Origin: Candidatus Collierbacteria bacterium GW2011_GWB2_45_17
GTDB taxonomy: Bacteria; Patescibacteriota; Microgenomatia; UBA1400; MFAQ01
DNA length: 64,000 nt
Reading direction: 5' to 3'
NCBI GenBank assembly: GCA_001001485.1
Contig: LCKO01000002.1
Span: 47,567-111,566, forward strand
Every line of letters begins with the position of its first letter. Position 1 is the first letter of the stretch. Of this stretch, positions 14,407 to 64,000 are shown piece by piece. The notes beneath the pieces are model-generated. The model made no database searches, had not been told where the DNA came from, and worked only from the letters and a program-made list of their open reading frames with translations. The translations under genes were made by a program, and so were the position numbers.

Positions 14407-14451
14407 GTCATCCTGAGCGAGCCTTCGCGAGCCGAAGGATCACACTCCACC
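14407..14451 (+). repeat. Family A mini-element copy A1 (gtcatcctgagcga..ccgaaggatcacactccacc), 7 nt after groEL stop
   Basis: GTCATCCTGAGCGA start and CACTCCACC end shared with copies at 52375 and 26854/27349/62870. Confidence 0.8.
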
Positions 14452-20687: not shown

Positions 20688-20722
20688 GTCATTGCGAAGT
20701 CGCTTAAGCGACCGCGGCAATC
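20688..20722 (+). repeat. Family A mini-element copy A2 (gtcattgcgaag-TCGCTTAAGCGA-ccgcggcaatc), 6 nt after stop of upstream gene
   Basis: Internal 12-nt perfect palindrome; same architecture as 25169 copy. Confidence 0.8.
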
Positions 20723-20740
20723 TATACAGATTTTCCTAAA

Positions 20741-20776
20741 CTTGAGTTCTTGATTCCTAGAGTTCTAGAGTTCTTT
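20741..20776 (+). repeat. Family B repeat copy B2 (cttgagtt cttgattc ctagagtt ctagagtt cttttt), intergenic, adjacent to A2
   Basis: Four degenerate 8-mers read directly. Confidence 0.8.
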
Positions 20777-26853: not shown

Positions 26854-26898
26854 GTCATTGCGAATCTCGTACTCGAGCTGTGGCAATCTCACTCCACC
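26854..26898 (+). repeat. Family A mini-element copy A4 (gtcattgcgaatctcgtactcgagctgtggcaatctcactccacc), fills metG / trpR-like intergenic gap and abuts stop codon at 26898-26900
   Basis: Shares both termini with 27349 and 62870 copies. Confidence 0.85.
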
Positions 26899-27260
26899 TA
26901 TCTGAATATCTTCTTTATCCCCCCTGTTATCTTCTCCGTCCAGTCACTGGCCCACTCTTCAGCCTTTATTCTCCTGATCATCTCTTGCCAGCCTGAGTTC
27001 CCCAAATTTTCCGCTACCGTGGCGATGGTGGCTGAGCTAACCTTAATATTATTTTTGATGTCTTCGTAGTTTCGGCCTTTATCAAGATAAAGTGCTATTC
27101 CCAGCCTTTTTATTACCGCCGTTCTCTCCCCCTCAGTTAGGACGTCACAGAGAACAGTCTTCAAGTCCTCCGGCGAGTCAATCTCTGCCAGTACCTGGTA
27201 AAACATCTGGTCTAACTGCTTCTCCAACGTCTTGTTAATTGGATTTTGTGAAACTTGCAT
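26898..27260 (-). CDS. TrpR-like (YerC/YecD family) small HTH protein
   Basis: 120 aa; HTH-like segment resembling Trp-repressor-like family; moderate. Confidence 0.4.
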   Translation of the reverse strand: MQVSQNPINKTLEKQLDQMFYQVLAEIDSPEDLKTVLCDVLTEGERTAVIKRLGIALYLDKGRNYEDIKNNIKVSSATIATVAENLGNSGWQEMIRRIKAEEWASDWTEKITGGIKKIFR

Positions 27261-27269
27261 ATTTCTGTC

Positions 27270-27319
27270 CTAAATAATAACCCTGCCTGCCGGTTTACCC
27301 GCCGTGGTGGGCAGGCAGG
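27270..27319 (-). terminator. Hairpin (cctgcctgcc-N18-ggcaggcagg) downstream of minus-strand membrane-protein gene, possible terminator
   Basis: 10-bp perfect stem read directly; U-rich-ish tract follows on minus strand. Confidence 0.35.
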
Positions 27320-27348
27320 TCTTTAATTAATTAAACCACACCTACATC

Positions 27349-27391
27349 GTCATTGCGAGGAGGTATTCCGACGTGGCAATCTCACTCCACC
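27349..27391 (+). repeat. Family A mini-element copy A5 (gtcattgcgaggaggtattccgacgtggcaatctcactccacc); 3' end supplies last codons and stop of gene 27382..27744
   Basis: 41/43 nt identical to lepA-internal copy at 62870. Confidence 0.85.
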
Positions 27392-27776: not shown

Positions 27777-28760
27777 ATGTCTTCCGATACCCTGATCATT
27801 GTTTCCTTCCTCGCCATCGGCCTGCTTTTAGTTTACCTTCTTCTCAAACAGAAGCTCGAAGCTCAGAAAACCGATCCGACTCTCAACGCTTGGCTCAAGT
27901 CCCTCCAGCAGTCTTTCGACACGACGAACCGTACCACCAACGCCTCTCTTCAGCAAAACTACCGCGAGCTCTTCGCCCGTCTCGATCAGGCTACCGCCGT
28001 CATTAGTGACCTCAAGAAAGAAGCCGGCGCCTTCGGCGAGGTCAGCCGCTCCATGAAAGATCTCCAAGATTACTTGAAGTCTCCCAAACTGAGGGGCAAC
28101 ATCGGTGAACAAGTCCTCAAAGACCTCATCGGCCAGATGTTCCCCAAAAATAGTTTTCATCTTCAATATCATTTTAAGGATGGCTCCATCGTCGATGCCG
28201 CCATCAAAACTCAAGCCGGCATCCTTCCGATCGACTCCAAGTTTCCCATGGAAAACTTCCAAAAAATCTACTCGGCAACTTCGGCTACCGACAAAGCCGC
28301 CGCTCGCAATGCCTTCATTCGCGATGTCAAAAAACACATCAAAGATATCTCCGGCAAGTACATTCTGCCGGAAGAAGGCACTCTCGACTTTGCACTTATG
28401 TACATTCCCTCAGAAACCATTTTTTACGAGATAGTCAACGAACAAGAGCTTATGGATCTGGCCCGCGACTCCCGTGTCTATCCTGTCTCGCCCACCACTC
28501 TCTATGCCCACCTTCAGACCATTCTTCTGTCTCTCGAAGGCCAGAAAATCGCCGGCAAAACCTCCGAAGTTTTTACTCTCCTAAGAGCCGTTCAAAAAGA
28601 CTACGAAAAGCTCAACGAAAACTTTGTTCTCATGGGTAAACACCTAACCAACGCCTACAACTCTTTAGGTAGTACCTCCCAAACCATGAACCAGATCGGC
28701 ACCAAGCTCGACTCCGCTCGCCAGCTCAAAACCGGCCTCCTAGAGGATACAGAGATATAA
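27777..28760 (+). CDS. rmuC: DNA recombination protein RmuC
   Basis: N-terminal TM, long coiled-coil, C-terminal RmuC block (ILPIDSKFP..LMYIPSETIFYEI). Confidence 0.8.
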   Translation: MSSDTLIIVSFLAIGLLLVYLLLKQKLEAQKTDPTLNAWLKSLQQSFDTTNRTTNASLQQNYRELFARLDQATAVISDLKKEAGAFGEVSRSMKDLQDYLKSPKLRGNIGEQVLKDLIGQMFPKNSFHLQYHFKDGSIVDAAIKTQAGILPIDSKFPMENFQKIYSATSATDKAAARNAFIRDVKKHIKDISGKYILPEEGTLDFALMYIPSETIFYEIVNEQELMDLARDSRVYPVSPTTLYAHLQTILLSLEGQKIAGKTSEVFTLLRAVQKDYEKLNENFVLMGKHLTNAYNSLGSTSQTMNQIGTKLDSARQLKTGLLEDTEI

Positions 28761-28769
28761 TATATAGAA

Positions 28770-29609
28770 ATGGTCAAAATACTATCAAAGGTTGAAGCAA
28801 TCAAATTATTGGGATTAGACGACAAAACATTTGAAAATTACTTCAAGAACGCAAGAGAATTTTTCTGTCTTCCTAGAAAAGGGAAAGAAAGATTTCGATT
28901 CGACGAGGACGAGTTAAAGCACTGGAAGAAGGACTTAATATGGCGTACTATAAATCTCAACTTTGAAGACTACGCCACTTGCCTAGATTTTGCTTTAGCT
29001 CAACATTTTCGAAAATATGTTGGTTCTGACTGGGGAACATCTAGACAAAGAGAATTTGGCCAAAAAATCACAAATTGGGTTAAGGGTCAATTGGGCGAAA
29101 TTGCCGTACAAAAATTTTTCAATAGGGAATTTGGAAAAGAAATTGAACTTGATTTCGATATTCACCCAAAGATAGTTCCCCAAGATATTATTGGAGTTTT
29201 AGAAAATCGTAAAATGAGAAAACCAAAAATAGGTGTTGGTATTAAATCTTCAAAACCAAAAAGTGCCTTTCTTGTTCTTGGAGACAAAGAGATTAAACTT
29301 AAGGAGAGGAGGTCGGATATCTATATTTATTGCCGACCAGATATCCCAGATGACCACCTTCTAAGATTGACAAAGGATTTGATCGTCAAAGCGGTAAAAG
29401 ACAAGCCACTATTCTCGAAATATAAGGACCTGCTTCCTGATTTTAATGATATTCCTTGTGAAGTAGTTGGTTGGTGTAGATACAAGGAGCTAGAAGAAGT
29501 ATCTTCCATTCCTGGGCAGGCTTTTGATAATGGAACAAGGTTTGTAAAAAAATCTGGTGAACTACACAAGAGTAAATCAGATTGGAAAAAACTTATCCAG
29601 CAACTATAG
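28770..29609 (+). CDS. Hypothetical protein; candidate restriction endonuclease partner of adjacent C5-MTase (by position only)
   Basis: Convergent with and 17-nt overlapping the 3' end of the m5C MTase gene; AT-rich by eye; no motif confidently recognised. Confidence 0.3.
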   Translation: MVKILSKVEAIKLLGLDDKTFENYFKNAREFFCLPRKGKERFRFDEDELKHWKKDLIWRTINLNFEDYATCLDFALAQHFRKYVGSDWGTSRQREFGQKITNWVKGQLGEIAVQKFFNREFGKEIELDFDIHPKIVPQDIIGVLENRKMRKPKIGVGIKSSKPKSAFLVLGDKEIKLKERRSDIYIYCRPDIPDDHLLRLTKDLIVKAVKDKPLFSKYKDLLPDFNDIPCEVVGWCRYKELEEVSSIPGQAFDNGTRFVKKSGELHKSKSDWKKLIQQL

Positions 29610-30876
29610 CTGGCTGAAAAACAAACATCTCTTCTTGATTCGATGAAACCTTTTCATTTTTACGTTTGTCTGTGATGTTCGCATAAACCCAATCATAATT
29701 TACCCCGGCAAATGTTTTTAATACTGCCTCCGAAATAATTTTAGCGGCTTTTGGCGGTACAGCCATTCCAATTTGTTTTCTTACGCTTTCTTTTGAACCT
29801 TCAAACACGAAATTGTCGGGAAAGGTTTGAATCCTTGCTCTTTCTCTGTTTGTTAAGGCTCTGTTTTCACTCCAATGATATCCGTGCGTTCCCCCACCTC
29901 CACTTCCAGTAATTGTATATGACGGTTTATCTTGGTGGAGCCTTTTATAGATTTGGCTTAATTTTGCCCCTTTTACATTCAGCTGTAGATATTTAGGAAT
30001 TGCTGAGTACCAAGCATTTTCACCTGGAGGTATATACTTTAATCTTTCTTCGACAATTTTTGATTGTGCGGTCATTTCGTTATTGGGAGCGTCTCTTTCA
30101 ATCGGAGGATTTTCTATGGCGTACTTAGCTGAAATATATTTGTTTGCGGATATGGGCGCTGGAACTCTAAATTCCAACCCCAAATCTTTTCTAATTCCTA
30201 TTATTACCACTCTGTGACGAGTTTGTGGTACCCCGTACTCTTCGAATTTATATTGATGTGCCGTAATTCTGTATCCTTCTCCAGCGTCTTCTAGATCCTC
30301 CAATATTTTTTCAAAGGCCCTACCACCATTGGCACTCTGCAGGCCACTAACATTTTCAGCCATAAACCACTTTGGATTATGTATATTTATGGCTTTGACA
30401 CCAAAGTTATACAAGGGGCCAAATTTTCCATTGAAGCCTTTTTGCTCGCCTACAACACTAAAATCATTGCATGGAAACCCAAAAGCCAAAACATCAAACG
30501 ACGGAACTTTTCTGAAATCAATTGTTTCGACCGGAGCACAAACTACTTTTGACATGTCACCGTGATGGATATTTTTTGCGTATGTTTTACACGTATTCTC
30601 ATCTATGTCATTCGCCCAAACAGGCTCAATTTCGTATATACTACCCGTTGAGTCAACAATCCTCGATGATTTTGCTCCAAAGGATAATCCTCCGGGGCCA
30701 CAAAATAGTTCAGCAAGTCTAAACTTTGTCGAATTGTTTTTTTGAATTCTATCAGCTTTCACAAGATTAAACATTCGTATAATATTTGGATATATATTAA
30801 GTAAAGCAGAATAGAAATCACGTGTCAAGCGGCACGCCGTTTGGCCAGCAGTGATTTTTGAATTCGCAAGTGGCAC
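29593..30876 (-). CDS. DNA (cytosine-5)-methyltransferase
   Basis: Motif I FCGPGG, motif IV GFPCNDFS, ENV motif FMAENVSGL; real start possibly internal Met (MFNLVK) removing overlap with upstream helicase. Confidence 0.85.
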   Translation of the reverse strand: MPLANSKITAGQTACRLTRDFYSALLNIYPNIIRMFNLVKADRIQKNNSTKFRLAELFCGPGGLSFGAKSSRIVDSTGSIYEIEPVWANDIDENTCKTYAKNIHHGDMSKVVCAPVETIDFRKVPSFDVLAFGFPCNDFSVVGEQKGFNGKFGPLYNFGVKAINIHNPKWFMAENVSGLQSANGGRAFEKILEDLEDAGEGYRITAHQYKFEEYGVPQTRHRVVIIGIRKDLGLEFRVPAPISANKYISAKYAIENPPIERDAPNNEMTAQSKIVEERLKYIPPGENAWYSAIPKYLQLNVKGAKLSQIYKRLHQDKPSYTITGSGGGGTHGYHWSENRALTNRERARIQTFPDNFVFEGSKESVRKQIGMAVPPKAAKIISEAVLKTFAGVNYDWVYANITDKRKNEKVSSNQEEMFVFQPAIVAG

Positions 30877-33800
30877 AGGTGGTGTAGACTGTAGTCCGGT
30901 CGAACTTTAGCTTCCGAATATCGGCCACCGAAGCTTTGATCACTTCTTTCAGCTCGCCCACTTCCTCCTCCGTGATATTAAAGTGTTCCCTTTTGAAAAC
31001 TCCTCCCTTATCCGGCTCGATAAAGTCGATCACTGACTGGACCACTTTGTATTTGAAGGATTTGTCCAAGTCAGCCAGTATGGTATAGAAAACCAGCTGA
31101 CGCTTGTAATCCCCATCGGAATTTTTGGTATTCCCCTCTATCTCATTCCTACTTTTGGGAGCCCCTGTCTTGTAGTCCGTAAATCGAACGTGTTTATCCT
31201 CCTTACTCGTCAGATCTATCCTATCCGCCTTTCCCGACAGGGGAATATCACCGAGCATTACTGAAGAAGATAGCGAGTCTCCAAATTTCTTCTCGGTAAA
31301 TAGACTCGGCTCAAACTCTTTCTCGTATCGATCATAGTATGCCGATAATATTTCTCTCCCGTGTTCCAATCGTGTCTTGTACTCTGCTTCCGTCAGCACT
31401 TCTCTCGCGAGAGCCACTTCAAAGTCCCGCAGGAAATCTTTTTTGGATTCCAGCTTCTCACCGTTATTCAGCCCCAAATATAGTCGTTCCAGAGCAAAGT
31501 GAACCGCTGTTCCAAAACACATGGGCGGTGCCTTCGCTCGCGGAATCTTGTAGAGGTTATCCAGCTTAAATTTATACGGACACTTGAGAAACGTATTTAA
31601 AGCCGTCGGGCTAAGCTTAAAGTCTTTGATGATTTGCAGTAGATACTCTTTCTCACCCTCGTGAATGGTCGGAGCTATTGGTACTTGCATTAGAGAGGCC
31701 AGAATCTTGGCCGCTTTTTTCTCCAGTCCTAACGTTTTAATTTTCTTTATTGTTTCTTTTGGCAGGTCTGAGAGAAACAGGGATGGATACACCATCTTTA
31801 CCGAAGAGCTGTACTTGGTAGAGCCTACTATATATAGCTCCTGCTTCGCCCGCGTCATGGCGACATAAAAAAGTCTTCGCTCCTCCGCATTCTTATCCTC
31901 CTTACTCACATCCTGCTCGTTGATGATTCCCGGTGGCAATTTGATCATCTGGCGCCTGCTGGTATTTCCCCAGTGAGTATCGGCGAAGCGATAAATGTAA
32001 ACCAGTTTCCACTCCAAGCCCTTGGCCTTGTGCGCCGTTGTCAGGGTTACGGCTTTGGTATCCGACACTAGTGTTTGCTCCGGCAGTTTCAGCCCGTTCT
32101 CTTCCATAATTCCAAGGTTAAAAACATAGCCAAAAATATCTAGACCAGAAGTTGCCGCCGCTTGTGCCTTAACATCTTCATAGAGAGTGCCAAAACGATT
32201 TAACTCGATGATCGGCTGGGGGAGAGCCAGAACATAATCAAGGAGCCCCGATTCTTGAAAAATAATCTGAAACATCTCCGGCAGAGTGTGAGAGGCCGAG
32301 CGCGAGTTCCACGACACCAGCAGATTAAACTTCTCTATCAATTCTCTATCAATCTCCGGATGAGCGTCTTGCAGGCTGTCCACCAACGTCTTTCTATTCT
32401 CGTGTGCATATCTGGCTGCTCTTAAAATAGGTAGTGGCTTGAGACCTAAATACGGATAATTCAAAATAGTAAAGAGGTCAATATCATCTACCGGACCCTG
32501 TAAACCGGTCACTACTTTGAGAATCTTCAGAAACTGGCCGACCAAAGGTGTTCTCAGCACATCCGTGCCCCCTTCCAAACGATACGGAATATTTTTTTGT
32601 TTGAAGATATTTATCAGATTATCGATATCTCTGTTTTCTTTGACGATGACCGCCATCTCTTCCGGCGGGATACCTTTCTTTATCTTTTGTTTTATCGACC
32701 GGCAAACAAATTCATCTTCCAGTACGGACGAGCTAAATTTGGCCGTCTTCACCAGCACGTCCCGATATTTCACTTTGGGGTTTAAGGGTGTTTCTCCCAT
32801 AAGGGCGGCGGAAGACTGCAGTAGACTCGGCGTCGAGCGGTAGTTATCTACCAGCTTGACCGAGGTGTGTCCCGGAAATCTTTTTTCAAAGGCCAACAAG
32901 TTTTCTTTACTGGCTCCCTGAAAACGGAAGATGGAATTATGAACGACAATGCCATTGGCTATAAAATTGTGAGAGGGGGTGACTTCGAGGTCAAAAACGG
33001 TTTTCACCTTGATTTCTTCAGTTCTGGAAATTATTTTTTCATATTTAATTTCAAACCCATTTAATACTGGTAAATAATTTCCTATGAGCAGGTTGCCCAT
33101 TTGCATGACTCTTGCAGATCTATGTTGAATTGAATTAGTTCCAATGCTTGACTTTATATCGATAAAGCCAGGCAACTCTCTTTCAAGGTTTTCTGCGATA
33201 CTGAACAATTGTTTTATATCTGTTGAGGTAATCCTAAAACCCTTGCCAATATTTTTGTTTTTCAATTTGAATCCTAATTTAGATAGCTTATCTAACACTT
33301 TTTTATTTGATGTTTGGATATTAATTTCGTGAAGAACCTCTGGGTGTTCAAGAAGACCGACCTTGGCATATTTAGTCCTGTAGCTTCTAGAGCACATCAT
33401 AAAGTTAATCTTCACCCTCCCTTTTCCAAGTGTGGTGGCCTCTCTTGAGTAGTGAGGCTCCATGAGATTTATTCCCAAATCATCGGCCAGTCTTTTTGCA
33501 TTCGAAAGTGTATCAAATTCTGCAAAAATTACCTTTATGTATTCCTGAGAAACTTTACCTCCTCGCGGTTGAAACACTATGGTAGGAATCTGATATTTTA
33601 GAGAATAGATTGTTTCTGCACAGCGAGCTTCCCATTCAGTATTATGTGAGGCGATTCCAACGATTTTATCTGCACCAGATTCCGTTTTAAGTCTAATCGA
33701 CAGACCCCTGGTAATTCCCAAACGCCAACCAACTCCTTCCTTGAACATCAGATAGTTGTACCAATAGCTGGTTTCTTCTCTCGGTGGAATGTAACAGAAC

Positions 33801-34906
33801 ATCTTGTGGTTATCGGTAGCGGTAACAGTTTTACCAGATTCTGTTGTTAGGGTGATTAGTCTTACCTTTTTGGTTTGGGAAAAAACGTTTGTAACCTTAA
33901 TGTATGAGGTATATCCTTTTCCGACGGCAGACAATACAGATTCCCCAATTTGTATATCCTTAATATTTTTTTCTCCTCCTGCTGTATTTATCTTCGTGTC
34001 GCCAGGAAGGCATTGATTGTTGTCTCCCACACAAAAAATATTTGACCTTTCTCCCCAGAAAGACGACAGAGCAAACACCAATCTATTTTGTGCCGAGTTC
34101 GTATCCTGATACTCGTCTACCAGAATGTACTGAAAATTTTCTTCGTATTGTTGTAAAAAATCCGCATCATTTTCAAACGCCTCTACCACCCAATTGATCA
34201 TGTCCTCGAAATCCAGTCTCCCCAATGCTTTTAATTTCTCCTGATATTTTTCGTAGATAAAAAGGAGATCAATATTCTTATTTACCAGCGTTTCCCTTTC
34301 GGTTCTCGCCGTCTTGCTCATTCCCCCTTTCTCTATCTCAAACTCGTCTTTGAGTATCGACACCAGCTCGGAAAACTTCTTCAAAGTAATTCCTTCTCTC
34401 TTGAGGATTGAGATACTGCCGATAATATCCTTGACATACATCAGGGGTGCATTGACGGGCTTCAAGAGTTTAAAAGAATTTTTTTCCAGAACTTCGGAAA
34501 TGAGATTGACTCTTTCCAGCTCTGTCACGTTCTGCATTCCCGCCGGCCTAGCAAACCTGTCCGGATTGTCGGCAATGATCTCATTACACAGTGCATGAAA
34601 GGTGCCGATCTTCACATAGTACCCGTCCTGACCGATAAGGCTGATGAGACGTTCCTTCATTTCTCTTGCCGCCGCATCGGTGTAGGTTAGGGCAAGAATT
34701 GAGGATGGTTCGGTATCGGTTTCTTTGAGAATATTGGCAATTCGTACCGTCAGTACTTGCGTTTTCCCGGTACCCGGACCGGCCAGCACCAGTACCGGCC
34801 CTTCGATACTATCGACGGCTTTTTTCTGAGTCGGATTTAATTTTCGATAAGCGGATTCAAAGGCAACCGTTACAGGCATGCCTAATTGTATATCGAAAAA
34901 AGTCAT
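30818..34906 (-). CDS. UvrD-family helicase fused to C-terminal PD-(D/E)XK / Cas4-like Fe-S nuclease, interrupted by an intein (1362 aa precursor)
   Basis: Walker A AGPGTGKT, motif II LVDEYQDTN, motif III split VGDNNQ|intein|SIFRFQGA; C-terminal Cys4 (C..CATCEFKNHC). Confidence 0.85.
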   Translation of the reverse strand: MTFFDIQLGMPVTVAFESAYRKLNPTQKKAVDSIEGPVLVLAGPGTGKTQVLTVRIANILKETDTEPSSILALTYTDAAAREMKERLISLIGQDGYYVKIGTFHALCNEIIADNPDRFARPAGMQNVTELERVNLISEVLEKNSFKLLKPVNAPLMYVKDIIGSISILKREGITLKKFSELVSILKDEFEIEKGGMSKTARTERETLVNKNIDLLFIYEKYQEKLKALGRLDFEDMINWVVEAFENDADFLQQYEENFQYILVDEYQDTNSAQNRLVFALSSFWGERSNIFCVGDNNQCLPGDTKINTAGGEKNIKDIQIGESVLSAVGKGYTSYIKVTNVFSQTKKVRLITLTTESGKTVTATDNHKMFCYIPPREETSYWYNYLMFKEGVGWRLGITRGLSIRLKTESGADKIVGIASHNTEWEARCAETIYSLKYQIPTIVFQPRGGKVSQEYIKVIFAEFDTLSNAKRLADDLGINLMEPHYSREATTLGKGRVKINFMMCSRSYRTKYAKVGLLEHPEVLHEINIQTSNKKVLDKLSKLGFKLKNKNIGKGFRITSTDIKQLFSIAENLERELPGFIDIKSSIGTNSIQHRSARVMQMGNLLIGNYLPVLNGFEIKYEKIISRTEEIKVKTVFDLEVTPSHNFIANGIVVHNSIFRFQGASKENLLAFEKRFPGHTSVKLVDNYRSTPSLLQSSAALMGETPLNPKVKYRDVLVKTAKFSSSVLEDEFVCRSIKQKIKKGIPPEEMAVIVKENRDIDNLINIFKQKNIPYRLEGGTDVLRTPLVGQFLKILKVVTGLQGPVDDIDLFTILNYPYLGLKPLPILRAARYAHENRKTLVDSLQDAHPEIDRELIEKFNLLVSWNSRSASHTLPEMFQIIFQESGLLDYVLALPQPIIELNRFGTLYEDVKAQAAATSGLDIFGYVFNLGIMEENGLKLPEQTLVSDTKAVTLTTAHKAKGLEWKLVYIYRFADTHWGNTSRRQMIKLPPGIINEQDVSKEDKNAEERRLFYVAMTRAKQELYIVGSTKYSSSVKMVYPSLFLSDLPKETIKKIKTLGLEKKAAKILASLMQVPIAPTIHEGEKEYLLQIIKDFKLSPTALNTFLKCPYKFKLDNLYKIPRAKAPPMCFGTAVHFALERLYLGLNNGEKLESKKDFLRDFEVALAREVLTEAEYKTRLEHGREILSAYYDRYEKEFEPSLFTEKKFGDSLSSSVMLGDIPLSGKADRIDLTSKEDKHVRFTDYKTGAPKSRNEIEGNTKNSDGDYKRQLVFYTILADLDKSFKYKVVQSVIDFIEPDKGGVFKREHFNITEEEVGELKEVIKASVADIRKLKFDRTTVYTTCATCEFKNHCWPNGVPLDT
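32936..34012 (-). mobile_element. Intein (359 aa) inserted in helicase motif III
   Basis: Starts CLPGDTKI right after VGDNNQ, block B TATDNH, ends NGIVVHN followed by S; excision restores VGDNNQSIFRFQGA. Confidence 0.8.
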
Positions 34907-34980: not shown

Positions 34981-36441
34981 GTGAAACAACAAGAACTAGG
35001 CGAATTACTGGAATATTTACTCTCACAACCAGGGGAATCTGAATGGATCGAATTCAAACATAATAATTATTCCCCAGATGATCTCGGAGAATATATCTCA
35101 GCCTTATCCAATTCAGCCTGTTTACTCGATAAACCGCGGAGCTATCTGATTTTCGGAATTGAAGACAAAACGAAAAAAGTTGTGGGAACAAATTTCAATC
35201 CAAATAAAGAAAAAGTAAGGAATCAAGAGTTATTGAATTGGCTGGATACTCAACTCCGTCCAAGCATACAGTTTACATTTAGCGTATTCTCAGAGCAAAA
35301 AACAGGATACCAAATTGTAATAATTGAAATTCACCCTGCCCCTGGTAGCCCAATTAAGTTCAAAACCGAAAGTTACATTAGAGTTGGAACATATAAAAAG
35401 AAATTAAGAGACCACGCGGGGTTAGAGAGAAGATTGTGGGAAAAATTGAACCGAAAAGATTTTGAATCACAATTAGCAACAGAGAACATTTCTTCAAGCG
35501 ACGTGCTCCGTATAATTGATTATCCAAGTTTCTTTGACATGTTAAATATACCCTTACCAGCAGACAGGGAGAGCATTCTATCTAAATTAGAAGAGGAGAG
35601 AATGATAGCTCGGAGAGGGAAATCATGCGATATTACAAATTTAGGAGCAATTCTATACGCCAAGAAACTAAGTTATTTCGAACATTTGGATAGAAAATCA
35701 ATTAGAGTAATAATATACAAAGGAGGAAACAGAAATGAATCAGCAAAGGAGCAAATTGGATTAAAGGGATATGCTACAGGCTTTGAGGGTCTTATAAGTT
35801 ATATTAACGATCAGATTCCTGCAAACGAACTAATTGGTCAGGCCATAAGAGTCAACACAAAAATGTATCCCGAGATTGCCATCAGGGAATTGGTTGCAAA
35901 CACATTGATTCACCAAGACCTTTCAATTAAAGGATCGTCCCCATTAATTGAAATATTCAACGATAGGATAGAATTCTCAAACCCAGGGAAACCCTTAATT
36001 GACACACTTCGTTTTCTAGATCATGCACCTCAAAGCAGAAATGAAAAAATCGCAAAAATGATGAGACGGGTTGGTATATGTGAAGAAAGAGGAAGTGGAA
36101 TTGACAAGGTTATTATCCAAACAGAACTCTATCAACTTCCTGCTCCAGAATTTGAAGTTGGAGATAGTTTCACAAGAGTAATTTTATTCGCTCATAAAAC
36201 ATTTTCGGAGATGGGGAAAAAGGATAGAATTCGTGCCGCATACCAACATTCATGTTTGAGATATGTTTCGAATCAACAAATGACAAACGAAAGTTTACGT
36301 AAGAGGTTCAATATTAGTGACAAGAATTATCCAATAGCCTCAAGAATTATTAACGAAGCTGTAGACGCTAAACTCGTAAAACCATTTGACCTTGAGTCAA
36401 AATCTAGGAAATACGCACGATATATACCTTTTTGGGCTTGA
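34981..36441 (+). CDS. AlbA_2 (divergent AAA / Schlafen-like DNA-binding) + HATPase_c_4 domain protein, RecG-C-terminal-like putative regulator
   Basis: N-term SEWIEFKHNNYSP..ISALSNSACLL..YLIFGIEDKTKKVVGT typical of AlbA_2; C-terminal HATPase_c_4-like region; AT-rich by eye. Confidence 0.6.
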   Translation: MKQQELGELLEYLLSQPGESEWIEFKHNNYSPDDLGEYISALSNSACLLDKPRSYLIFGIEDKTKKVVGTNFNPNKEKVRNQELLNWLDTQLRPSIQFTFSVFSEQKTGYQIVIIEIHPAPGSPIKFKTESYIRVGTYKKKLRDHAGLERRLWEKLNRKDFESQLATENISSSDVLRIIDYPSFFDMLNIPLPADRESILSKLEEERMIARRGKSCDITNLGAILYAKKLSYFEHLDRKSIRVIIYKGGNRNESAKEQIGLKGYATGFEGLISYINDQIPANELIGQAIRVNTKMYPEIAIRELVANTLIHQDLSIKGSSPLIEIFNDRIEFSNPGKPLIDTLRFLDHAPQSRNEKIAKMMRRVGICEERGSGIDKVIIQTELYQLPAPEFEVGDSFTRVILFAHKTFSEMGKKDRIRAAYQHSCLRYVSNQQMTNESLRKRFNISDKNYPIASRIINEAVDAKLVKPFDLESKSRKYARYIPFWA

Positions 36442-45766: not shown

Positions 45767-47740
45767 TCACCAGCTGTCAATATCTTCAAAATCGTCTTTA
45801 ACCGCCTCCTCAATCTCCCAATCCTGCACAATAATCCTCTTTTTTTCCCCAAATTCATCAAAACCGTCATTGCGAGACGTAGGGGTTTGATTTATCAAAC
45901 CCGTTCGGCGTGGCAATCCAGTGTCTTGAGTTCTTGGGTTCTTGATTTCTTGAGTTCTTTGGATGTTCTCATCCGATATCTCGGATAAAAACCTTGACGG
46001 TATCGATTGATGCCTCCCCCCAAAACTAAGTCTTGATCTGGCCCACGAAAGGGTCAGATTCTCTTTTGCCCTGGTCATGGCCACGTACATGAGTCTCCTT
46101 TCTTCCTCGATCTCTTCTTTACCGCCCTCAAACATCGAGCGGGAGTGGGGGAAAAGCCCCTCTTCCAAGCCCACTACAAAAATCTCGGGAAACTCCAGCC
46201 CCTTAGCCGCGTGCACTGTCATCAAAGTCAGCTTTGCGTTTGATCGGTGTTGTTTAATCTCCGACTCCGAAAGAGCCGCGCTTTCCAAAAATAGCGCTAC
46301 ACTTTCGTACTCTCCGGCCACTGCCAACAGCTCGTTTATATTTTCGATTCTTGCCACATCTTCCTCATCCCTCTCATCAAATCTTTCCATGTAATTAATC
46401 AAATTAATTATTTCCTCCAATAGAGGTCCCGGTCGCCCTTCACTCCTTCTCTTATCAGAAAGTCTCCCGAACCATTCATCAAAAATGGCGGCTTTTCTTT
46501 TTCCGATTTTTTCAATTCTCTGCCGGCTGATTTCCTCACCCGGGTTGTGAATTAGTCGTAAATAGGCGATCAAGTCTTTTACCTCCGCTCGATTATAAAA
46601 CCGCAGTCCGCCAATCAACTTGTAGGGAATATCCCGTCTTAACAGTTCATCTTCAAACGCACGGGACTGGGCATTTGTTCGATAAAGAACTGCTACTTCC
46701 TCCCCCCGGTCACCGATTTTTTTAGATTGATCCACCACATATCTTGCTTCGTCTCTTTCATCCAGGGCTTCAAATAAATTAACTTTTTGACCCATCTCTC
46801 TGGTTGCCGAAAGTTTTAAAGTCGGATGATTAGTATTATTGCTCACCACCCCATAAGCCGCGTCCAAGATATACTGGGTGCTCCGATAATTCTTAGGCAG
46901 TCCGACCGTGGTTAGTTCGGGGTAAGTTTCTTCCAGCAGTCTCAAATTTCTATAATCTGCCCCTCTAAAAGAGTAGATGGCTTGGGCGGCGTCTCCCACC
47001 GCCGTAATATTTCGTTTTTCTCCGGCCAGCAACTTTGTCAGTTCAAACTGAGCTTTGTTGGTGTCTTGATACTCATCCACCAGTATCCACTCAAGTCGGT
47101 CGTTTACCTCTTTTCTAATCCTGTCGATTTCTAACACTTTCACCGCCTTAACCAGCAAATCATCAAAGTCCACCGCGTTGTTCCGAACCAGTCTACTCTG
47201 GTACTCACTCCAAACTTTATTAATCTGCCGGTGAAAATAATCTCTCGACACGTTTTCGGCCTCTTTTAAAGTTACCAAATCGTTTTTCATCTTACTGATC
47301 ATGGCCAAAAACATCCCCGGTTTGTTTTGCTTCGGGTCAATAGAGAGATCTTTAAGCACCTTTTTCATCACGGACTCGGAGTCTTGACTATCAAAAATTA
47401 CAAAATGGGGGCTCACTCCGACCTCCACTCCGTAGTTTCTCAGCAGTTTGGCGCAAAAAGTATGAAAAGTACCGGAAAATCCCAGATCAATCTTTTTGCC
47501 CGCCGAATTGGATGGTTTTGTGCCGATCTTTTTGATTCTTTCTTTCATCTCACCGGCCGCTTTATTGGTGAAAGTTAACAAGGCTATTTTCGTTGGGTCG
47601 ACATTTTTTTCTTTGATCAACCATGCCACTCGGTGGATCAGCACTCTTGTTTTTCCCGAACCTGCTCCGGCCAGAACCAAAAGAGGACCTTCTCCATGAG
47701 TTACCGCCACCAGCTGTTCTTTATTGAGAATATCTACCAC
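45767..47740 (-). CDS. ATP-dependent DNA helicase PcrA/UvrD/Rep family (C-terminal tail carries in-frame A+B repeats)
   Basis: AGAGSGKT Walker A, LVDEYQDTN, VGDAAQAIYSFRGA motif III intact, 657 aa. Confidence 0.9.
   Translation of the reverse strand: MVDILNKEQLVAVTHGEGPLLVLAGAGSGKTRVLIHRVAWLIKEKNVDPTKIALLTFTNKAAGEMKERIKKIGTKPSNSAGKKIDLGFSGTFHTFCAKLLRNYGVEVGVSPHFVIFDSQDSESVMKKVLKDLSIDPKQNKPGMFLAMISKMKNDLVTLKEAENVSRDYFHRQINKVWSEYQSRLVRNNAVDFDDLLVKAVKVLEIDRIRKEVNDRLEWILVDEYQDTNKAQFELTKLLAGEKRNITAVGDAAQAIYSFRGADYRNLRLLEETYPELTTVGLPKNYRSTQYILDAAYGVVSNNTNHPTLKLSATREMGQKVNLFEALDERDEARYVVDQSKKIGDRGEEVAVLYRTNAQSRAFEDELLRRDIPYKLIGGLRFYNRAEVKDLIAYLRLIHNPGEEISRQRIEKIGKRKAAIFDEWFGRLSDKRRSEGRPGPLLEEIINLINYMERFDERDEEDVARIENINELLAVAGEYESVALFLESAALSESEIKQHRSNAKLTLMTVHAAKGLEFPEIFVVGLEEGLFPHSRSMFEGGKEEIEEERRLMYVAMTRAKENLTLSWARSRLSFGGRHQSIPSRFLSEISDENIQRTQEIKNPRTQDTGLPRRTGLINQTPTSRNDGFDEFGEKKRIIVQDWEIEEAVKDDFEDIDSW
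45866..45919 (+). repeat. Family A mini-element copy A6 (gtcattgcgagacgtaggggtttgatttatcaaacccgttcggcgtggcaatcc), in-frame in helicase tail
   Basis: GTCATTGCGAG..TGGCAATC termini with internal hairpin gggtttgat-ttatcaaaccc. Confidence 0.75.
45925..45960 (+). repeat. Family B repeat copy B3 (cttgagtt cttgggtt cttgattt cttgagtt cttt), in-frame (RTQEIKNPRTQD), adjacent to A6
   Basis: Read directly; same frame usage as tsaD copy. Confidence 0.85.
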
Positions 47741-48597: not shown

Positions 48598-49667
48598 GTC
48601 TCATGAAACTTAGCCATGTCAGACCCATGCGCCTTCTCGTCAAATTCCTGTCCGGAATTAAAAATCATCTTTGGTTAATATTTATTGTTTTTGCCGCTTC
48701 CATCCTTGTCGCCCTGGGTGTCGTTGGCTATGGTTATTTATTAAAATTAAATGTCCGCCCCCAAAATCTGCTTAATTTTTTTGGCACTCCAAAAGATAAT
48801 CTGGAAAGCACCGGTGGTATCACCAATTTTTTAGTTTTGGGTATTCGTGGTGAGGGGTCGGAGTCTCCCGATCTTTCGGACACCCTCATTCTGGCGTCGT
48901 ATAACCACGAAAACAATACTACTTCTCTGATCAGTATTCCTCGGGATCTCTGGGTTCCTTCTCTAAAAGCCAAAATTAATACCGCTTATTACTACGGTGA
49001 GCAAGCCAGCCCCGGAGCCGGTATCAATTTTGCCCAAGCCTCCGTTCTGGAAGATCTGGGTCAACCCATCCACTATACCGCCATCGTCAACTTTACTCTC
49101 TTTACTCAGGCTATTGATCTGGTTGGTGGTGTCGACATTGAAGTTAATCCCGGTTTTTCGGACACCCAGTTTCCCATCCCGGGTAAAGAAAAGGCCTTGC
49201 CAATTTCTTCCCGTTACGAAAAAATTTCTTTTTCAGGAGGCATAAATCACCTAGACGGCCAAACAGCTCTCAAATTTGTCCGGTCACGTCACTCGGTCGG
49301 TGATGAAGGCACCGACTTTGCTCGAACGAATCGCCAACAACAGGTAATTTATGCCCTTCGTCAAAAAATTATCAACCCAGGTTTCCTCCTCGATCAAAAA
49401 AAGGTGGACGCTCTGCTTAACATTATCGGAAAAAATCTCAAATCAAACATTGATGGGGATCTCTATCCAACACTGGCCAAACTCGCCTTGGATACTAGAG
49501 ATAAACCTATCCGCACCATCTCCCTCACCGACACCCCCGACAAAAATGGCGTCACTATTCTCGAAAATCCTCCTATATCAAAATATAACGGTGAATGGGT
49601 CCTTATTCCCAAAGATAACAACTGGAACGCTCTCAAGCAATATCTCAAAAACGCCCTCTCCCAATAG
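48594..49667 (+). CDS. LytR-CpsA-Psr (LCP) family cell-wall polymer transferase
   Basis: N-terminal TM; LGIRGEG..DTLILASYN..LISIPRDLWV..DLVGGVDIEV. Confidence 0.8.
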   Translation: MSLMKLSHVRPMRLLVKFLSGIKNHLWLIFIVFAASILVALGVVGYGYLLKLNVRPQNLLNFFGTPKDNLESTGGITNFLVLGIRGEGSESPDLSDTLILASYNHENNTTSLISIPRDLWVPSLKAKINTAYYYGEQASPGAGINFAQASVLEDLGQPIHYTAIVNFTLFTQAIDLVGGVDIEVNPGFSDTQFPIPGKEKALPISSRYEKISFSGGINHLDGQTALKFVRSRHSVGDEGTDFARTNRQQQVIYALRQKIINPGFLLDQKKVDALLNIIGKNLKSNIDGDLYPTLAKLALDTRDKPIRTISLTDTPDKNGVTILENPPISKYNGEWVLIPKDNNWNALKQYLKNALSQ

Positions 49668-49713
49668 GGCCAGGCCTTAAAGGGCACCAATCTGCAAGGC
49701 CTGGCCCTGCAGG
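49667..49713 (+). repeat. Family C palindromic repeat copy C3 (same GGGCCAGGCCTT / AAGGCCTGGCCC arms, variant loop), overlapping stop codon of LCP gene
   Basis: Arms identical to 10484/10682 copies; loop aaagggcaccaatctgc. Confidence 0.85.
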
Positions 49714-49727
49714 ATCGCGATGACAAA

Positions 49728-51704: not shown

Positions 51705-51729
51705 GTCATTCCCGACCTGATCGGGAATC
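51705..51729 (+). repeat. Family A mini-element copy A9a (gtcATTCCCGAcctgaTCGGGAATc), intergenic
   Basis: Perfect 8-bp arms. Confidence 0.8.
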
Positions 51730-51754
51730 TATATAAATAATCCATATTTGGGAT

Positions 51755-51779
51755 GGATCCCCGCATTCGCGAGGATGAC
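51755..51779 (-). repeat. Family A mini-element copy A9b in opposite orientation (rc: gtcatcctcgcgaatgcggggatcc), intergenic
   Basis: Read as reverse complement; forms inverted pair with A9a 25 bp away. Confidence 0.7.
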
Positions 51780-51792
51780 AAATCGTGTATTG

Positions 51793-53052
51793 TCATCTAT
51801 TTTTCATATCTTCTATAACTGCTTTTGCCACCTCATTCCCCATTTTGACCGCGTAGTTGGTTCCCCTGTCAAACGGATAAACCATACTCATATTAGCGAG
51901 GTATACTCCCGCAATCGACGTCCTCATGTCTGGAAGCCTTGAAGAGTAGTTTATCGGAAAGACCGGCTGGGCAAAAGGCTCTCGAAAGAGGTAACTGCCT
52001 TTAACTTGATTTTTCTTGAAACCATGATTTATTTTTTTTAAAAAAGGAGAATAAATTTTTAACAGCTCTTCCTTAGTCATCTCTAGCTGTTCGTCACCTT
52101 CCGGCAGATAGTTCCCGAGATACACCAGGACGTTTCCTCCATAATATTTTTTGTCAATCATGTTGGTATGTTCCACCACCACCAGAAAGGGCCATTTATC
52201 CTCCAGTATGTTTAGCCAATAACCCCGAATAAGTTTTTTAGAAAGTTCCAAAATTAACGTTTGTCCCCACAGATAATCTAATTTCGGAAAATCGATTCTC
52301 GGAACCATCTTCTTAATGATCGGCGCCGGTACAGTCATCACCACCACCTCAAACCTCTCCCCATTCACCAACATGTCATCCTGAGCGAAGTCGAAGGATC
52401 TCACTTCACTATTCACTCTCACCTTTCCCCCTTTCCTTTCTATACTCTCCACCATTTTCTCCACCAAACCACCAAACCCTCCCTCAAAATATCCCAATCT
52501 TTGTGTTCTTTTGGCCACTCGGCTCCAAAACCACGCCATGTTAACCTGCTTTACAAACGGTCCAAACTTAGCGGTTAACAATTTTTTCCAAATCGTTTCG
52601 TAACCGCCTCTGCCCAAAAGTTTCGGAAGAAAATCCACCACTTGATACTTTTCTAGAAATAAGCCATCGGGAATTATTTTTAGCACTGTCAAACCCAAAC
52701 CCATCCGAACTCTCTCCCCCAAACTTATTCCCGAAAATCTCAACAAAGACAGTGGAGAGTCTAGCTGGATTTCTTGGTTGTCAATATAACTACTGGTTAC
52801 CGGACTATTTATCTGCACTGGACAGTTCACCTTCTCGGCTAACTGGATAATCTCCTTATCGTTTGTAAAAACATGATGATAAAAGCTCTCCAAACTCCAC
52901 TTCCATTTAAAGTTTCCCAAAAACCCCGCCGCCAGCCCTCCACACTTATCACTAGCTTCGAAAATCGTCACTTGAAATCCTTGATCCACCAAACTTAGTG
53001 CACAAGCGAGACCGGTAAAACCTCCACCAATAATAGCGATCTTTTTCCTCAC
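51793..53052 (-). CDS. FAD/NAD(P)-binding amine-oxidase-like oxidoreductase (protoporphyrinogen/phytoene-desaturase-like fold)
   Basis: N-terminal Rossmann KIAIIGGGFTGLACAL..EASDKCGG; carries in-frame A8 insert (RSFDFAQDDM). Confidence 0.65.
   Translation of the reverse strand: MRKKIAIIGGGFTGLACALSLVDQGFQVTIFEASDKCGGLAAGFLGNFKWKWSLESFYHHVFTNDKEIIQLAEKVNCPVQINSPVTSSYIDNQEIQLDSPLSLLRFSGISLGERVRMGLGLTVLKIIPDGLFLEKYQVVDFLPKLLGRGGYETIWKKLLTAKFGPFVKQVNMAWFWSRVAKRTQRLGYFEGGFGGLVEKMVESIERKGGKVRVNSEVRSFDFAQDDMLVNGERFEVVVMTVPAPIIKKMVPRIDFPKLDYLWGQTLILELSKKLIRGYWLNILEDKWPFLVVVEHTNMIDKKYYGGNVLVYLGNYLPEGDEQLEMTKEELLKIYSPFLKKINHGFKKNQVKGSYLFREPFAQPVFPINYSSRLPDMRTSIAGVYLANMSMVYPFDRGTNYAVKMGNEVAKAVIEDMKNR
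52375..52404 (+). repeat. Family A mini-element copy A8 (gtcatcctgagcgaagtcgaaggatctcac), in-frame in oxidoreductase
   Basis: Same head as 14407 copy. Confidence 0.8.
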
Positions 53053-59798: not shown

Positions 59799-60343
59799 TA
59801 TTTAAAAGTTGCCTGAATATTAAATTTTACCGCCCCCGAAGTTTGGTCGAAATTGGTGTCTTTCATTGAAAGATTGGCAATCCCCTCCATTTTCTTCAAA
59901 CTTCTCAGTAGCTGGGCAAATCCCAGCTCCGACACCGATTCACCGGCCATTCCGACACCGCTATCGTCGATAGTCAGCTTCTCTAGGTGAACTCCGGAAG
60001 GAATCAGCTTGGAAAGGCTATCGTATCGTCCACCAAAAGAAATGTTCTCCGCCAAGTAGTTGCTTATGGGGGCTTGCTTGGCCAAAATCTTCCTCATTTG
60101 TTTTTCCGTTTCGGCAAATGACTCAATCTGAACCTGTTTCTGGTCCACCTCTTCTGACAAGTCATTGATTTTTTTATCAAAGTAAAATCTTGATCCGAAA
60201 GCGAGTAACACCACAAACTCGGTCAGAACCACCAAAACTCTTCCGGTCGTCGTCGCCCACGACAAAAACTTTCCCAAACCGGAAAACTCAAAACTATCTT
60301 TCGGTATTAAATTGATCTGAAAAACACCTTGCTGAGTAGCCAC
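59798..60343 (-). CDS. Type IV pilus assembly protein PilN-like
   Basis: N-terminal QINLIPKD (PilN INLLP motif), TM, coiled coil. Confidence 0.45.
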   Translation of the reverse strand: MATQQGVFQINLIPKDSFEFSGLGKFLSWATTTGRVLVVLTEFVVLLAFGSRFYFDKKINDLSEEVDQKQVQIESFAETEKQMRKILAKQAPISNYLAENISFGGRYDSLSKLIPSGVHLEKLTIDDSGVGMAGESVSELGFAQLLRSLKKMEGIANLSMKDTNFDQTSGAVKFNIQATFK

Positions 60344-62336: not shown

Positions 62337-64000
62337 ATGTCCAACTCAACTCGAAACTTCTCTATTATTGCTCATATTGATGCCGGCAAATCTACTTTGG
62401 CAGATCGTATGTTGGAAATCACCGGTACTGTTCAGGCGGACAAAATAACCCCCCAACTTCTGGATAGCAACCCTATCGAGCGCGAACGGGGAATCACCAT
62501 CAAACTAGCCCCAGTAGCCATGAGCCACAAGGGTTATACTCTCAATCTCATTGATACTCCAGGCCATGTAGATTTTAATTATGAAGTTGAGCGTGCTCTC
62601 CAGGCCTGCGAAGGCGCCCTACTACTAGTAGATGCCACCAAAGGGGTTCAGGCTCAAACTGTCGCCAATCTCCGTCTAGCCAAGAATCTTGGCCTTACCA
62701 TTATTCCGGTCGTCAACAAAATCGACGCCCCCCTAGCCAACACCTCTGCCGCTATTCGTCAGTTAAAACAACTTTTAAATATCGATATCGAACCATTTCT
62801 GGTTTCCGCCAAAACCGGAGAGGGAGTCAAAAATCTATTAGACCACATCATCTCCGACCTCCCTAGTCCGTCATTGCGAGGAGGTACACCGACGTGGCAA
62901 TCTCACTCCACCCACCCCTTCCAGGCCCTCGTCTTCAACTCCACCTTCGATATCCATCTGGGAGTCATTGCCTTTGTCAAAATCGTTTCCGGAGACCTTC
63001 ATCATGGCGATAAACTGGAGTTTCTAAACTCCGGCCAGTCGCTGACTGCTTCCGAAATTGGCATTTTTTCGCCCGGAAGAACCGAAAAAAAGATCATTGC
63101 CTCCGGTAATGTCGGCTATATCATCACCGGCTTGAAAGATATTCGCCGAGTTTTGGTCGGGGACACCCTCTGTCTTTCCACCCAGATAAAACAGGTCAGC
63201 CCCATACCCGGCTTCCGAAAAATTCACCCCAACGTTTTTTTGGATCTCTACCCGGCCGAGGGTTCACAGTACCGGGATCTGGTCGATGCTTTGGAAAAAT
63301 TAAAACTTAATGATTCTTCCCTCACCACTCAAGGCATCAACTCTCCCATTCTCGGCCAAGGTGTCAAGGTGGGTTTCCTGGGGATGCTTCACGCCGAGGT
63401 GGTGGGTGAGCGACTGGAAAGAGAGTTTGGTCTGCCGGTCATCTCCGTTTCTCCTTCGGTAGAGTACAAAGTTCAGCTCCGTTCCGGTGAAGAAAAATGT
63501 TTTAGTTCTCCGACCGACTTTCCAGATCCGGCTGTAATTACCAAGAGTTACGAACCCATGGCCGCGGTCAACATCGTGGTGACCTCACCCTACGTCGGTG
63601 CCGTCATGGAACTCTGTCAGGATCTGCGAGGCAGTCTGGTCAACGTTTCCTACCTTGATGAGTTAGTCGAGATCGATTATTTCCTACCCCTAATCGAAGT
63701 TATCACCACTCTTCATGACAGCCTCAAAAGTGTTTCTCAAGGCTTTGCTTCCATGGACTACGAACTTTCCGGTTGGCAGGAGGCCGAATTAGTTAAACTT
63801 GATGTCCTCCTCAATCACGAACTCTTCACCCCCATGAGTGTTATAACGGTGAAAGAAAAAGCTTACTACAAAGGCAAAAGAATTTCCGAAAAACTTAAAG
63901 AAGCTATTCCTCGTCAGCAGTTTGAGATCCCTATTCAGGTGGCTATTGGTGGCCAGATCATCGCTCGAGAAACTATCAAGGCTTACCGTAAAGATGTCGA
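62337..64000 (+). CDS. lepA: Elongation factor 4 (LepA), runs off the window end; contains in-frame family-A insertion
   Basis: NFSIIAHIDAGKSTLADR G1 motif, DTPGHVDF, NKID; insert SLRGGTPTWQSHST at 62870-62912. Confidence 0.9.
   Translation, partial: MSNSTRNFSIIAHIDAGKSTLADRMLEITGTVQADKITPQLLDSNPIERERGITIKLAPVAMSHKGYTLNLIDTPGHVDFNYEVERALQACEGALLLVDATKGVQAQTVANLRLAKNLGLTIIPVVNKIDAPLANTSAAIRQLKQLLNIDIEPFLVSAKTGEGVKNLLDHIISDLPSPSLRGGTPTWQSHSTHPFQALVFNSTFDIHLGVIAFVKIVSGDLHHGDKLEFLNSGQSLTASEIGIFSPGRTEKKIIASGNVGYIITGLKDIRRVLVGDTLCLSTQIKQVSPIPGFRKIHPNVFLDLYPAEGSQYRDLVDALEKLKLNDSSLTTQGINSPILGQGVKVGFLGMLHAEVVGERLEREFGLPVISVSPSVEYKVQLRSGEEKCFSSPTDFPDPAVITKSYEPMAAVNIVVTSPYVGAVMELCQDLRGSLVNVSYLDELVEIDYFLPLIEVITTLHDSLKSVSQGFASMDYELSGWQEAELVKLDVLLNHELFTPMSVITVKEKAYYKGKRISEKLKEAIPRQQFEIPIQVAIGGQIIARETIKAYRKDV
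62870..62912 (+). repeat. Family A mini-element copy A7 (gtcattgcgaggaggtacaccgacgtggcaatctcactccacc), in-frame in lepA
   Basis: 41/43 identical to intergenic copy at 27349. Confidence 0.9.

Follow-up and report, generated by a model that had tools for sequence, protein, structure and literature searches.

The DNA analyzed here, in the following called the window, comprises 64,000 nt from Candidatus Collierbacteria bacterium GW2011_GWB2_45_17, which belongs to the candidate phyla radiation (CPR) (contig LCKO01000002.1, positions 47,567-111,566 of the plus strand; assembly GCA_001001485.1). At its right end lies lepA, the gene of elongation factor 4 (EF4), which starts with an ATG at 62337 on the plus strand and leaves the window at 64000 after 554 codons. 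The encoded protein is 100% identical to the elongation factor 4 of GW2011_GWB2_45_17. In the linker between the G domain and domain II the gene contains a segment of 43 nt (62870-62912, plus strand), which is probably one copy of a short, oriented, hairpin-forming DNA repeat family of the type of the Ssn-related motifs (SRM) that landed in frame in a permissive linker. An earlier note on this DNA had stated that lepA remains in frame across the segment, and reading from 62337 confirmed that the frame is open through the whole element, which encodes SLRGGTPTWQSHST (residues 179-192). The tryptic peptide predicted for the insert is GGTPTWQSHSTHPFQALVFNSTFDIHLGVIAFVK.

The same note had described the segment as nearly identical to an intergenic sequence at 27349-27391 and as sharing both ends with a further copy at 26854-26898. 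Both statements were borne out. The 43-mer agrees with 27349-27391 (plus strand) at 41 of 43 positions, this is its sole match in the window at up to three mismatches, and none of 100 dinucleotide-preserving shuffles contained a match. The two mismatches (CA versus TT at 62887-62888) are both located in the apical loop, the unconstrained part of the element (GG-TACA-CC versus GG-TATT-CC). The 3' 19-mer GTGGCAATCTCACTCCACC occurs exactly three times in the window (26880, 27373 and 62894), and the 5' 10-mer GTCATTGCGA exactly six times, always on the plus strand. The intergenic copy at 26854-26898 (plus strand) contains both the decamer and the 19-mer and has the same tail, combined with a different distal stem, CTCG..CGAG. 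These comparisons support the view that the lepA segment is a repeated, mobile-type element rather than a product of convergent codon usage.

A scan with the pattern GTCAT, stem, complementary stem and ATC identified 12 copies of this oriented family in the window (11 on the plus and one on the minus strand) versus a chance rate of about two matches per shuffled 64 kb. The elements start with an invariant GTC, followed by a stem whose first bases are AT; next come a distal stem-loop, which varies, the complementary stem with AT at its end and an invariant C. All curated copies begin with GTCAT, the preceding base is a C in 7 of 10, and the two stem halves with the terminal AT-C are present in every copy. 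In Collierbacteria the hairpin is followed by the tail TCACTCCACC. Applied to lepA, the core hairpin spans 62870-62902 (GTC-ATTGC...GCAAT-C) and the subfamily tail 62903-62912. The base stem covaries while GTC and the final C are fixed: ATTGC/GCAAT, ATCCC/GGGAT, ATCCT/AGGAT, ATTCCGG/CCGGAAT, ATCGC/GCGAT and ATTCCCGA/TCGGGAAT were all found. The distal stem is conserved as a structure as well. Among 97 distinct metagenome cores with an unconstrained middle, the best distal stem had a mean length of 4.45 bp versus 2.72 bp in shuffled sequences, and a gap-free alignment of 18 copies contained 13 cells with changes on both sides versus 2.5 expected, a value reached in 0 of 500 shuffles; in slid registers the signal collapsed. 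Many of the loops are GNA triloops closed by a C-G pair (C-GNA-G), a classic stable DNA mini-hairpin. The lepA copy fits this two-tier scheme as GGA-GG-TACA-CC-GAC.

To place the insert within LepA, the protein was aligned around the junction DLPSP...HPFQALVFNS, as the earlier note had proposed. Collierbacteria LepA without insert (589 aa) reads DLPSP-KTEDKP-[FL]QALVFNS and has a linker of 6 residues (e.g. KTEDKP). The corresponding linker of the window has 16 residues. The 43 nt are therefore the length of the identity and not the net insertion, which amounts to 30 nt, so that about 13-15 nt of the original linker were also lost to the element. Of 94 Collierbacteria LepA clusters, 36 have an extended linker at just this position, and 19 of these 36 show peptides diagnostic of the hairpin in two reading frames: SLRG.., VIAR.. 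(the same DNA in the other frame) and VIPS.. (ATCCC type). Some linkers hold two elements, and others hold unrelated short palindromic inserts. In a crude neighbour-joining tree with the linker masked, insert-bearing LepAs were scattered among insert-free ones in a dozen or more places.

The DNA of related Collierbacteria lepA loci, designated by L numbers, was obtained by exact-protein look-up of syntenic contigs; a scan of genome contigs with conserved LepA GTPase peptides yielded only Firmicutes LepA (45-49% identity) and no Collierbacteria DNA. In the window and in L081, L208 and L207 the first two bases of the same proline codon precede the element. In L211 its start is shifted by 4 nt in the 3' direction (one codon and one base), in the ATCCC-type copies by one codon (L083) and three codons (L209). 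L081 (95.7% DNA identity) contains the common GCGAAGC core, which is one base shorter, together with a compensating four-base change downstream. L083 (92.5% DNA identity) has an ATCCC..GGGAT hairpin with the same 3' tail and flank as the window, so that three different lepA hairpins are found at 92-96% DNA identity. L085/P0004, the closest insert-free relative seen, and L210, which is more distant, have neither the insert nor hairpins nearby, which fits lineage-specific expansions. The distant L207 (82% LepA protein identity) has, at precisely the same nucleotide junction, a decayed copy of the same GTAC-core subtype as the window, with a mutated GTC and a broken stem, which means that the site has either been filled more than once or been occupied since long ago. 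Taken together, these loci showed that the same LepA linker has been invaded again and again in Collierbacteria and that its occupant changes fast. The lepA allele of the window is younger than the split from L081, and the history of the site is long.

The peptide encoded at this junction in L207, SLRGSTLTWQSI, is similar to that of the window although the DNA is divergent. This is what would be expected if the 14 residues were an old, selected feature of LepA and the intergenic copies were derived from lepA, or if the similarity were convergent. The earlier note had likewise taken the same residues with divergent DNA in close relatives as the sign of an old, fixed insertion. In the strains with 95.7% and 92.5% identity the site holds other hairpins, and the only similar copy, in the distant L207, looks like decay and not like selection, given its broken stem and mutated GTC. 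Moreover, most LepAs including that of the nearest insert-free relative have no insert, the hairpins of neighbouring strains are unrelated and in other frames, and the repeat is present in hundreds of unrelated contigs. An old LepA feature is thus extremely improbable, and the LepA alignment, the junction DNA and the tree already largely refute it.

Independent assemblies yielded the identical LepA protein on at least 24 contigs; the allele is therefore genuine and no assembly artefact. L206 (GWA2_44_99) was considered as an independent lineage with the insert and rejected, since its DNA is 100% identical with two gaps and represents the same population. One gap comprises 108 nt of lepA (window 63246-63353) and is bounded by CGGCCRAGG microhomology, the other about 120 nt near window 60122-60244; they are either deletion variants or assembly artefacts. 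The deposited LepA (P0001, 575 aa) starts with MLEITGTV, 24 codons 3' of the ATG at 62337, and is devoid of the P-loop AHIDAGKS encoded in the omitted part (window 62337-62408); the public gene start therefore looks wrong.

Mapping on the EF4 structure agreed with the guess of the earlier note that the insert forms a loop. It aligns to a gap in EF4 from T. thermophilus (PDB 5imq) between IPPPK and PLKALIFDS. An AlphaFold model based on 61 sequences reached a mean pLDDT of 82.7 and was of low confidence only at switch I (44-55) and at residues 182-191. The latter, with a pLDDT <50, are modeled as a coil without secondary structure between helix 164-174, the last of the G domain, and strand 196-205, the first of domain II. 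According to the model the insert is a disordered loop in the inter-domain linker. A hairpin copy would thus have landed in this flexible linker or replaced part of it, and it would have survived there because the frame was kept, no stop codon was introduced and only an unstructured loop was added. The insert would be a passenger in the protein and not a feature of LepA.

The note had further argued for recent mobility, and here the evidence is divided. On the one hand the nearest strains carry different hairpins at the site. On the other hand the 41 of 43 identities overstate the recency, because 23 of the 43 bases are family-wide and both differences fall in the apical loop. A metagenome scan in which only GTCATTGCGAGG and GTGGCAATCTC were fixed showed that these 23 bases recur exactly in at least 120 contigs with a GC content of 29-69%, and the 3' tail of the lepA element is common to Collierbacteria copies generally. 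In a scan of viral contigs (IMG/VR, L215-L334) GTCATTGCGAGG and GTGGCAATCTC without the terminal TC recurred in at least 120 contigs.

The hairpin GTCATTGCGAGG...GTGGCAATC is abundant in the viral contigs (at least 120), and one of them, L227, contains at least 8 copies in 13 kb, all on one strand. No copy with the Collierbacteria-specific tail was found in the viral scan. In some high-GC metagenome contigs (L131 10733-11110, L107 and L187) the hairpin forms part of a longer unit, ...ccccgattt-hairpin-gggaaggcagttgcga / gcagtacccgg..., with a period of 172 nt, which looks like a larger composite repeat.

The anatomy of the family resembles a class of repeats described in 2025 (Chenal et al., Nat Commun 2025, PMC11893778). 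The NTS repeat of Neisseria, CGTCATTCCCGCGMAVGCGGGAATCYRG, is an oriented extension of dRS3 of the form CGTCATTCCCGCG..GCGGGAATCYRG, and the wider class comprises the SRM (PMC11893778). The small GIY-YIG nuclease SsnA, a single-domain protein, binds and cleaves NTS/SRM only as single-stranded DNA and on one strand only, as shown for Neisseria and Wolbachia; binding depends critically on the C that follows the palindrome and cutting on the 3 nt that precede it, and the loop is dispensable (PMC11893778). The ssn genes are typically flanked by repeats, and only 2% of the NTS copies of N. meningitidis are located in genes (PMC11893778). The published degenerate SRM pattern, HGTCWYN(0-2)YYVSBRHN(0-5)WNVSBRGN(0-2)RNCYNB, was derived from 29 genomes of 4 phyla and admits short loops only (PMC11893778).

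Like NTS/SRM, the repeats of the window are oriented hairpins with (C)GTCAT running into the stem, a stem that starts and ends with AT, a conserved C after the palindrome, a free loop and many copies per genome. They differ in the ATTGCGAG..GCAAT stem and in the two-tier hairpin with internal G/G mismatches and a variable distal stem, which lie outside the published pattern, and in the CPR host, the high share of coding copies and the strong single-strand bias described below. A second line of evidence comes from neighbouring genes in other contigs. With a local hidden Markov model (HMM) built from four metagenome proteins, six GIY-YIG open reading frames (ORFs) of about 96 aa were found in 120 metagenome loci. 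All five that were scanned match PF01541; NCBIfam gave no specific family. In five metagenome loci (L142, L202, L087, L158 and L197) hairpins of the type ATTGCGAG..GCAAT or ATTCCGG..CCGGAAT are located 4-110 nt from GIY-YIG genes. The same anatomy and the hairpins flanking GIY-YIG genes suggest, by association and shape, that the sequence family found in lepA is an Ssn-type repeat, and judged from this resemblance the repeats of the window would belong to the NTS/SRM family. There is also a likeness to the dRS3/NIME repeats of Neisseria, whose core ATTCCC-N8-GGGAAT has the architecture of the copies at 25134 and 51705 and which cluster around genes as the repeats do here. dRS3 is, however, defined without oriented flanks and is a phage integration target, and nothing at the present loci shows integration.

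A strand-specific process is indicated by the distribution of the copies. In 79 kb of this genome, comprising the window and 15 kb extensions, 16 of 17 copies are on the plus strand (binomial, two-sided p ~3e-4) and the host genes are on both strands. The GC skew of the plus strand is negative in every 4-kb bin (-0.04 to -0.26). Curated copies in Collierbacteria loci are found 39 times on the C-rich versus 5 times on the G-rich strand, counts that are partly non-independent as the loci are syntenic, and all five on the G-rich strand are partners in inverted pairs. In L164, with a skew of +0.18, all three copies are on the minus strand. Among the viral contigs listed, 29 loci have several copies, and in 22 of these the copies all share one strand. 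In Collierbacteria nearly all copies are thus found on the C-rich strand whatever the direction of the genes, which argues for a strand-specific DNA process and not for a function at the level of RNA or protein. As for the cause, the cleavable GTCAT strand may be kept away from the template of the lagging strand, where DNA is exposed in single-stranded form, and selection against self-cutting at the fork would then lead to placement on the C-rich strand. Alternatively, the bias could be due to a strand-specific insertion route.

This distribution is also relevant for the question of whether the hairpins act in RNA as terminators, stabilising hairpins or regulatory structures that are tolerated in coding sequence. 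Such a role would fit several copies that directly follow a stop codon or separate convergent genes (14407, 20688 and that after dnaJ in L213), and it would also fit the conservation of the structure by covariation. However, with one chromosomal strand kept and host genes running both ways, half of the copies would be antisense in RNA. In addition, no T-run follows the hairpins, the repeat had no Rfam match at the gathering threshold or even at E <= 1, and the C-GNA-G loops point to DNA hairpins. We therefore regard an RNA-level element as very improbable.

Several points weigh against the interpretation of the lepA segment as an SRM-type hairpin. The lepA copy can form only a 5-bp base stem and a 2-bp distal stem, and it folds weakly as DNA (-3.1 kcal/mol, z = +1.1), no better than shuffles. 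Its translation is presumed from the open frame. The published SRM pattern has its sole match in the window at 51753-51780 (minus strand), and lepA and all ATTGCGAG-type copies fail it. A search with a motif regex, the local HMM and Pfam scans of the window ORFs detected no GIY-YIG or Ssn gene in the window, the 15 kb extensions and about 150 kb of related Collierbacteria loci. No target-site duplications were present at the ten junctions examined, and no terminal inverted repeats were visible. Finally, the reasoning on the strand bias presupposes a G-rich leading strand, which is the usual rule. A profile search of a set of 5.8 billion proteins retrieved GIY-YIG proteins of about 96 aa from other phyla and none labelled Collierbacteria among the matches listed, and a search of 1.05 Mb of viral loci for GIY-YIG ORFs was negative.

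The local lack of an Ssn gene would be easier to understand if the repeats were REP- or MITE-like elements spread by a conventional transposase (RAYT/IS200-IS605 Y1 or DDE) and merely resembled NTS/SRM. REP/REPIN and IS200/IS605 elements share with the present family short imperfect palindromes, a conserved 5' tetranucleotide, single-stranded hairpins, occasional inverted pairs and a dependence on the strand; a bias in orientation is likewise characteristic of single-strand transposition that depends on hairpins. But the 5' motif is GTCA(T), whereas that of REPs is GTAG or GTGG, and neither Pfam scans of the window ORFs nor the gene tables of related loci contained Y1_Tnp or any other transposase domain. 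The missing duplications and terminal inverted repeats speak against this origin as well, and the termini, GTCAT and ATC, do not correspond to the inverted repeats at an insertion sequence end, which a MITE would require. Elsewhere the same sequence family directly flanks GIY-YIG genes, so that the associated gene is a nuclease and not a transposase. We consider transposase-driven spread unlikely, and an SRM-type hairpin remains the probable identity of the lepA insert.

The insertion into lepA is no isolated case. At least 7 of the 17 copies in the 79 kb (about 40%) lie within coding sequence, versus the 2% of N. meningitidis, and this analysis showed that many other copies in the compact genome are also in frame in genes or at gene ends. 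In tatD two adjacent copies (25134-25203, plus strand; ATTCCGG..CCGGAAT at 25134-25159 and ATTGCGAGG..GACAAT at 25169-25203) are read antisense and in frame and add 24 residues. A 53-nt copy with a long distal stem (45866-45918, plus strand), likewise antisense and in frame, is located in the C-terminal tail of a UvrD-type helicase. The copy at 52375-52400 (plus strand, ATCCT..AGGAT) encodes, antisense and in frame, the loop FDFAQDD of an amine oxidase; at this position L083 has other hairpins and L211 none. An imperfect copy, GTCATTCCGAG...GGCAATC (10635-10672, plus strand), is in frame in a 1081-aa ORF (8190-11435) between a TraG-like and a NUDIX part. In grpE, about 4 kb past the end of the window, a hairpin (L213 15569-15600) provides the last 13 codons and the stop codon (..GSGESVIARSETTRQSI*). 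The hairpin-derived tails of grpE differ or are double in relatives (L081 16544, L083 16683) and are not present in L210.

Other copies are located between genes. The copy at 14407-14441 (plus strand, ATCCT..AGGAT) directly follows the stop codon of groEL, and that at 20688-20722 (plus strand, distal stem GTCGC/GCGAC) lies between convergent genes. The only minus-strand copy of the window belongs to an inverted pair at 51705-51779, which consists of ATTCCCGA..TCGGGAAT at 51705-51729 (plus strand) and its partner at 51756-51779 (minus strand). Between the DUF2298 gene and the amine oxidase gene, the window and L083 each have such an inverted pair in the spacer, with different hairpins between flanks that can be aligned. 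At the end of grpE, by comparison, the orthologous copies of L213 and L083 are distinguished by a compensatory change from T-A to C-G in the mini-hairpin. Therefore both evolution in place and replacement occur.

A farther-reaching interpretation, which we regard as doubtful, is that the hairpins of Collierbacteria are exchangeable cassettes at fixed landing sites and at the same time a strand-placed mark that distinguishes self from incoming DNA. Another copy would serve as the template for the repair of a nick beside a resident hairpin or of a transforming single strand, and the hairpin would be swapped rather than mutated, including those in the essential genes lepA, grpE and tatD. Protein linkers and tails would in this way become hypervariable between strains that are 92-96% identical. 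The placement on the C-rich strand would reflect the avoidance of self-cleavage on the exposed lagging-strand template, and the repeats would serve as a replication-oriented, genome-wide mark in a naturally competent, ultra-small bacterium.

Some further repeats and genes lie close to the hairpins. Tandem arrays of the 8-nt unit GAGTTCTT are present at 2390-2426, 20740-20776 and 45925-45968. Two of the three directly follow hairpins on the 3' side (20688 and 45866), and the antisense translation of the array at 45925 forms part of the UvrD tail. A palindromic family of 50 nt, GGGCCAGGCCTT...AAGGCCTGGCCC, has copies at 10483-10532, 10681-10730 and 49665-49714. The first two are 100% identical, flank the hairpin at 10635 and are translated as QALENPQSARPGPAG inside ORF 8190-11435; the third abuts GTCATCGCGATC on the minus strand at 49713-49726. 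In this ORF a TraG/VirD4-like ATPase part is linked to a NUDIX domain, possibly as a fusion made through repeats.

Just upstream of the hairpin at 27349 a strong GC-rich inverted repeat (cctgcctgccgg...ggcaggcagg, 27283-27320) was found that is related in sequence to the inserts of other LepA linkers (PVQQAG). A gene for a Trp-repressor-like protein of 120 aa (26898-27260, minus strand, PF01371) is bracketed by the hairpins at 26854 and 27349, which have the same orientation and identical tails, a layout that resembles the NTS-gene-NTS arrangement of Neisseria. This protein was considered as the partner of the hairpins; only the position of its gene speaks for that. A 1362-aa helicase-nuclease of the UvrD/AddA type (30818-34906, minus strand) contains a PD-(D/E)XK domain and an intein (Hint/Intein_splicing, about residues 296-657), and nearby are genes for a C-5 cytosine methylase (29593-30876), RmuC (27777-28760) and a Schlafen/AlbA_2 protein (34981-36441).

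The class of elements itself was described in 2025, and, according to the account in PMC10969869, palindromic selfish repeats in frame in housekeeping genes at fold-compatible sites have been known from Rickettsia since 2000 (Ogata et al. 2000). The Rickettsia palindromic elements (RPE) resemble the present family, as far as that account describes them, in their in-frame palindromic inserts in housekeeping genes of a small-genome bacterium. They are about 100-150 bp long, form Rickettsia-specific families and encode a conserved peptide module, whereas the elements described here have 25-53 nt, occur in several frames (two sense frames and antisense) and on both strands and show turnover at one site; judged by this description, they are not RPE. 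A literature search for Patescibacteria with palindromic in-frame repeats found nothing, and PMC11893778 mentions neither Patescibacteria or candidate phyla nor a replication-strand bias, and coding insertions only as the 2% figure. New here are the CPR host, a stem family not covered by the published pattern, EF4 as a recurrent landing site whose hairpins turn over rapidly, the high coding share and the strand bias along the replichore.

With the probable assignment of the lepA insert, the SRM class, defined in cultured Proteobacteria and relatives, would be extended to the CPR and to a stem family that the published pattern misses. DNA-level elements would routinely be written into the proteins of a tightly packed genome, as in LepA, GrpE, TatD, the helicase and the oxidase, in parallel to the Rickettsia palindromic elements and with elements three times smaller. 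Stretches such as SLRG.., VIAR.., ..PRND and ..AGMT in CPR proteins would be derived from repeats and would not be lineage-specific protein innovations, and phylogenies and alignments of LepA should mask the linker between the G domain and domain II. The strand bias along the replichore and the fast turnover in place may provide clues to how such repeats spread and to the role of the nuclease outside Neisseria.

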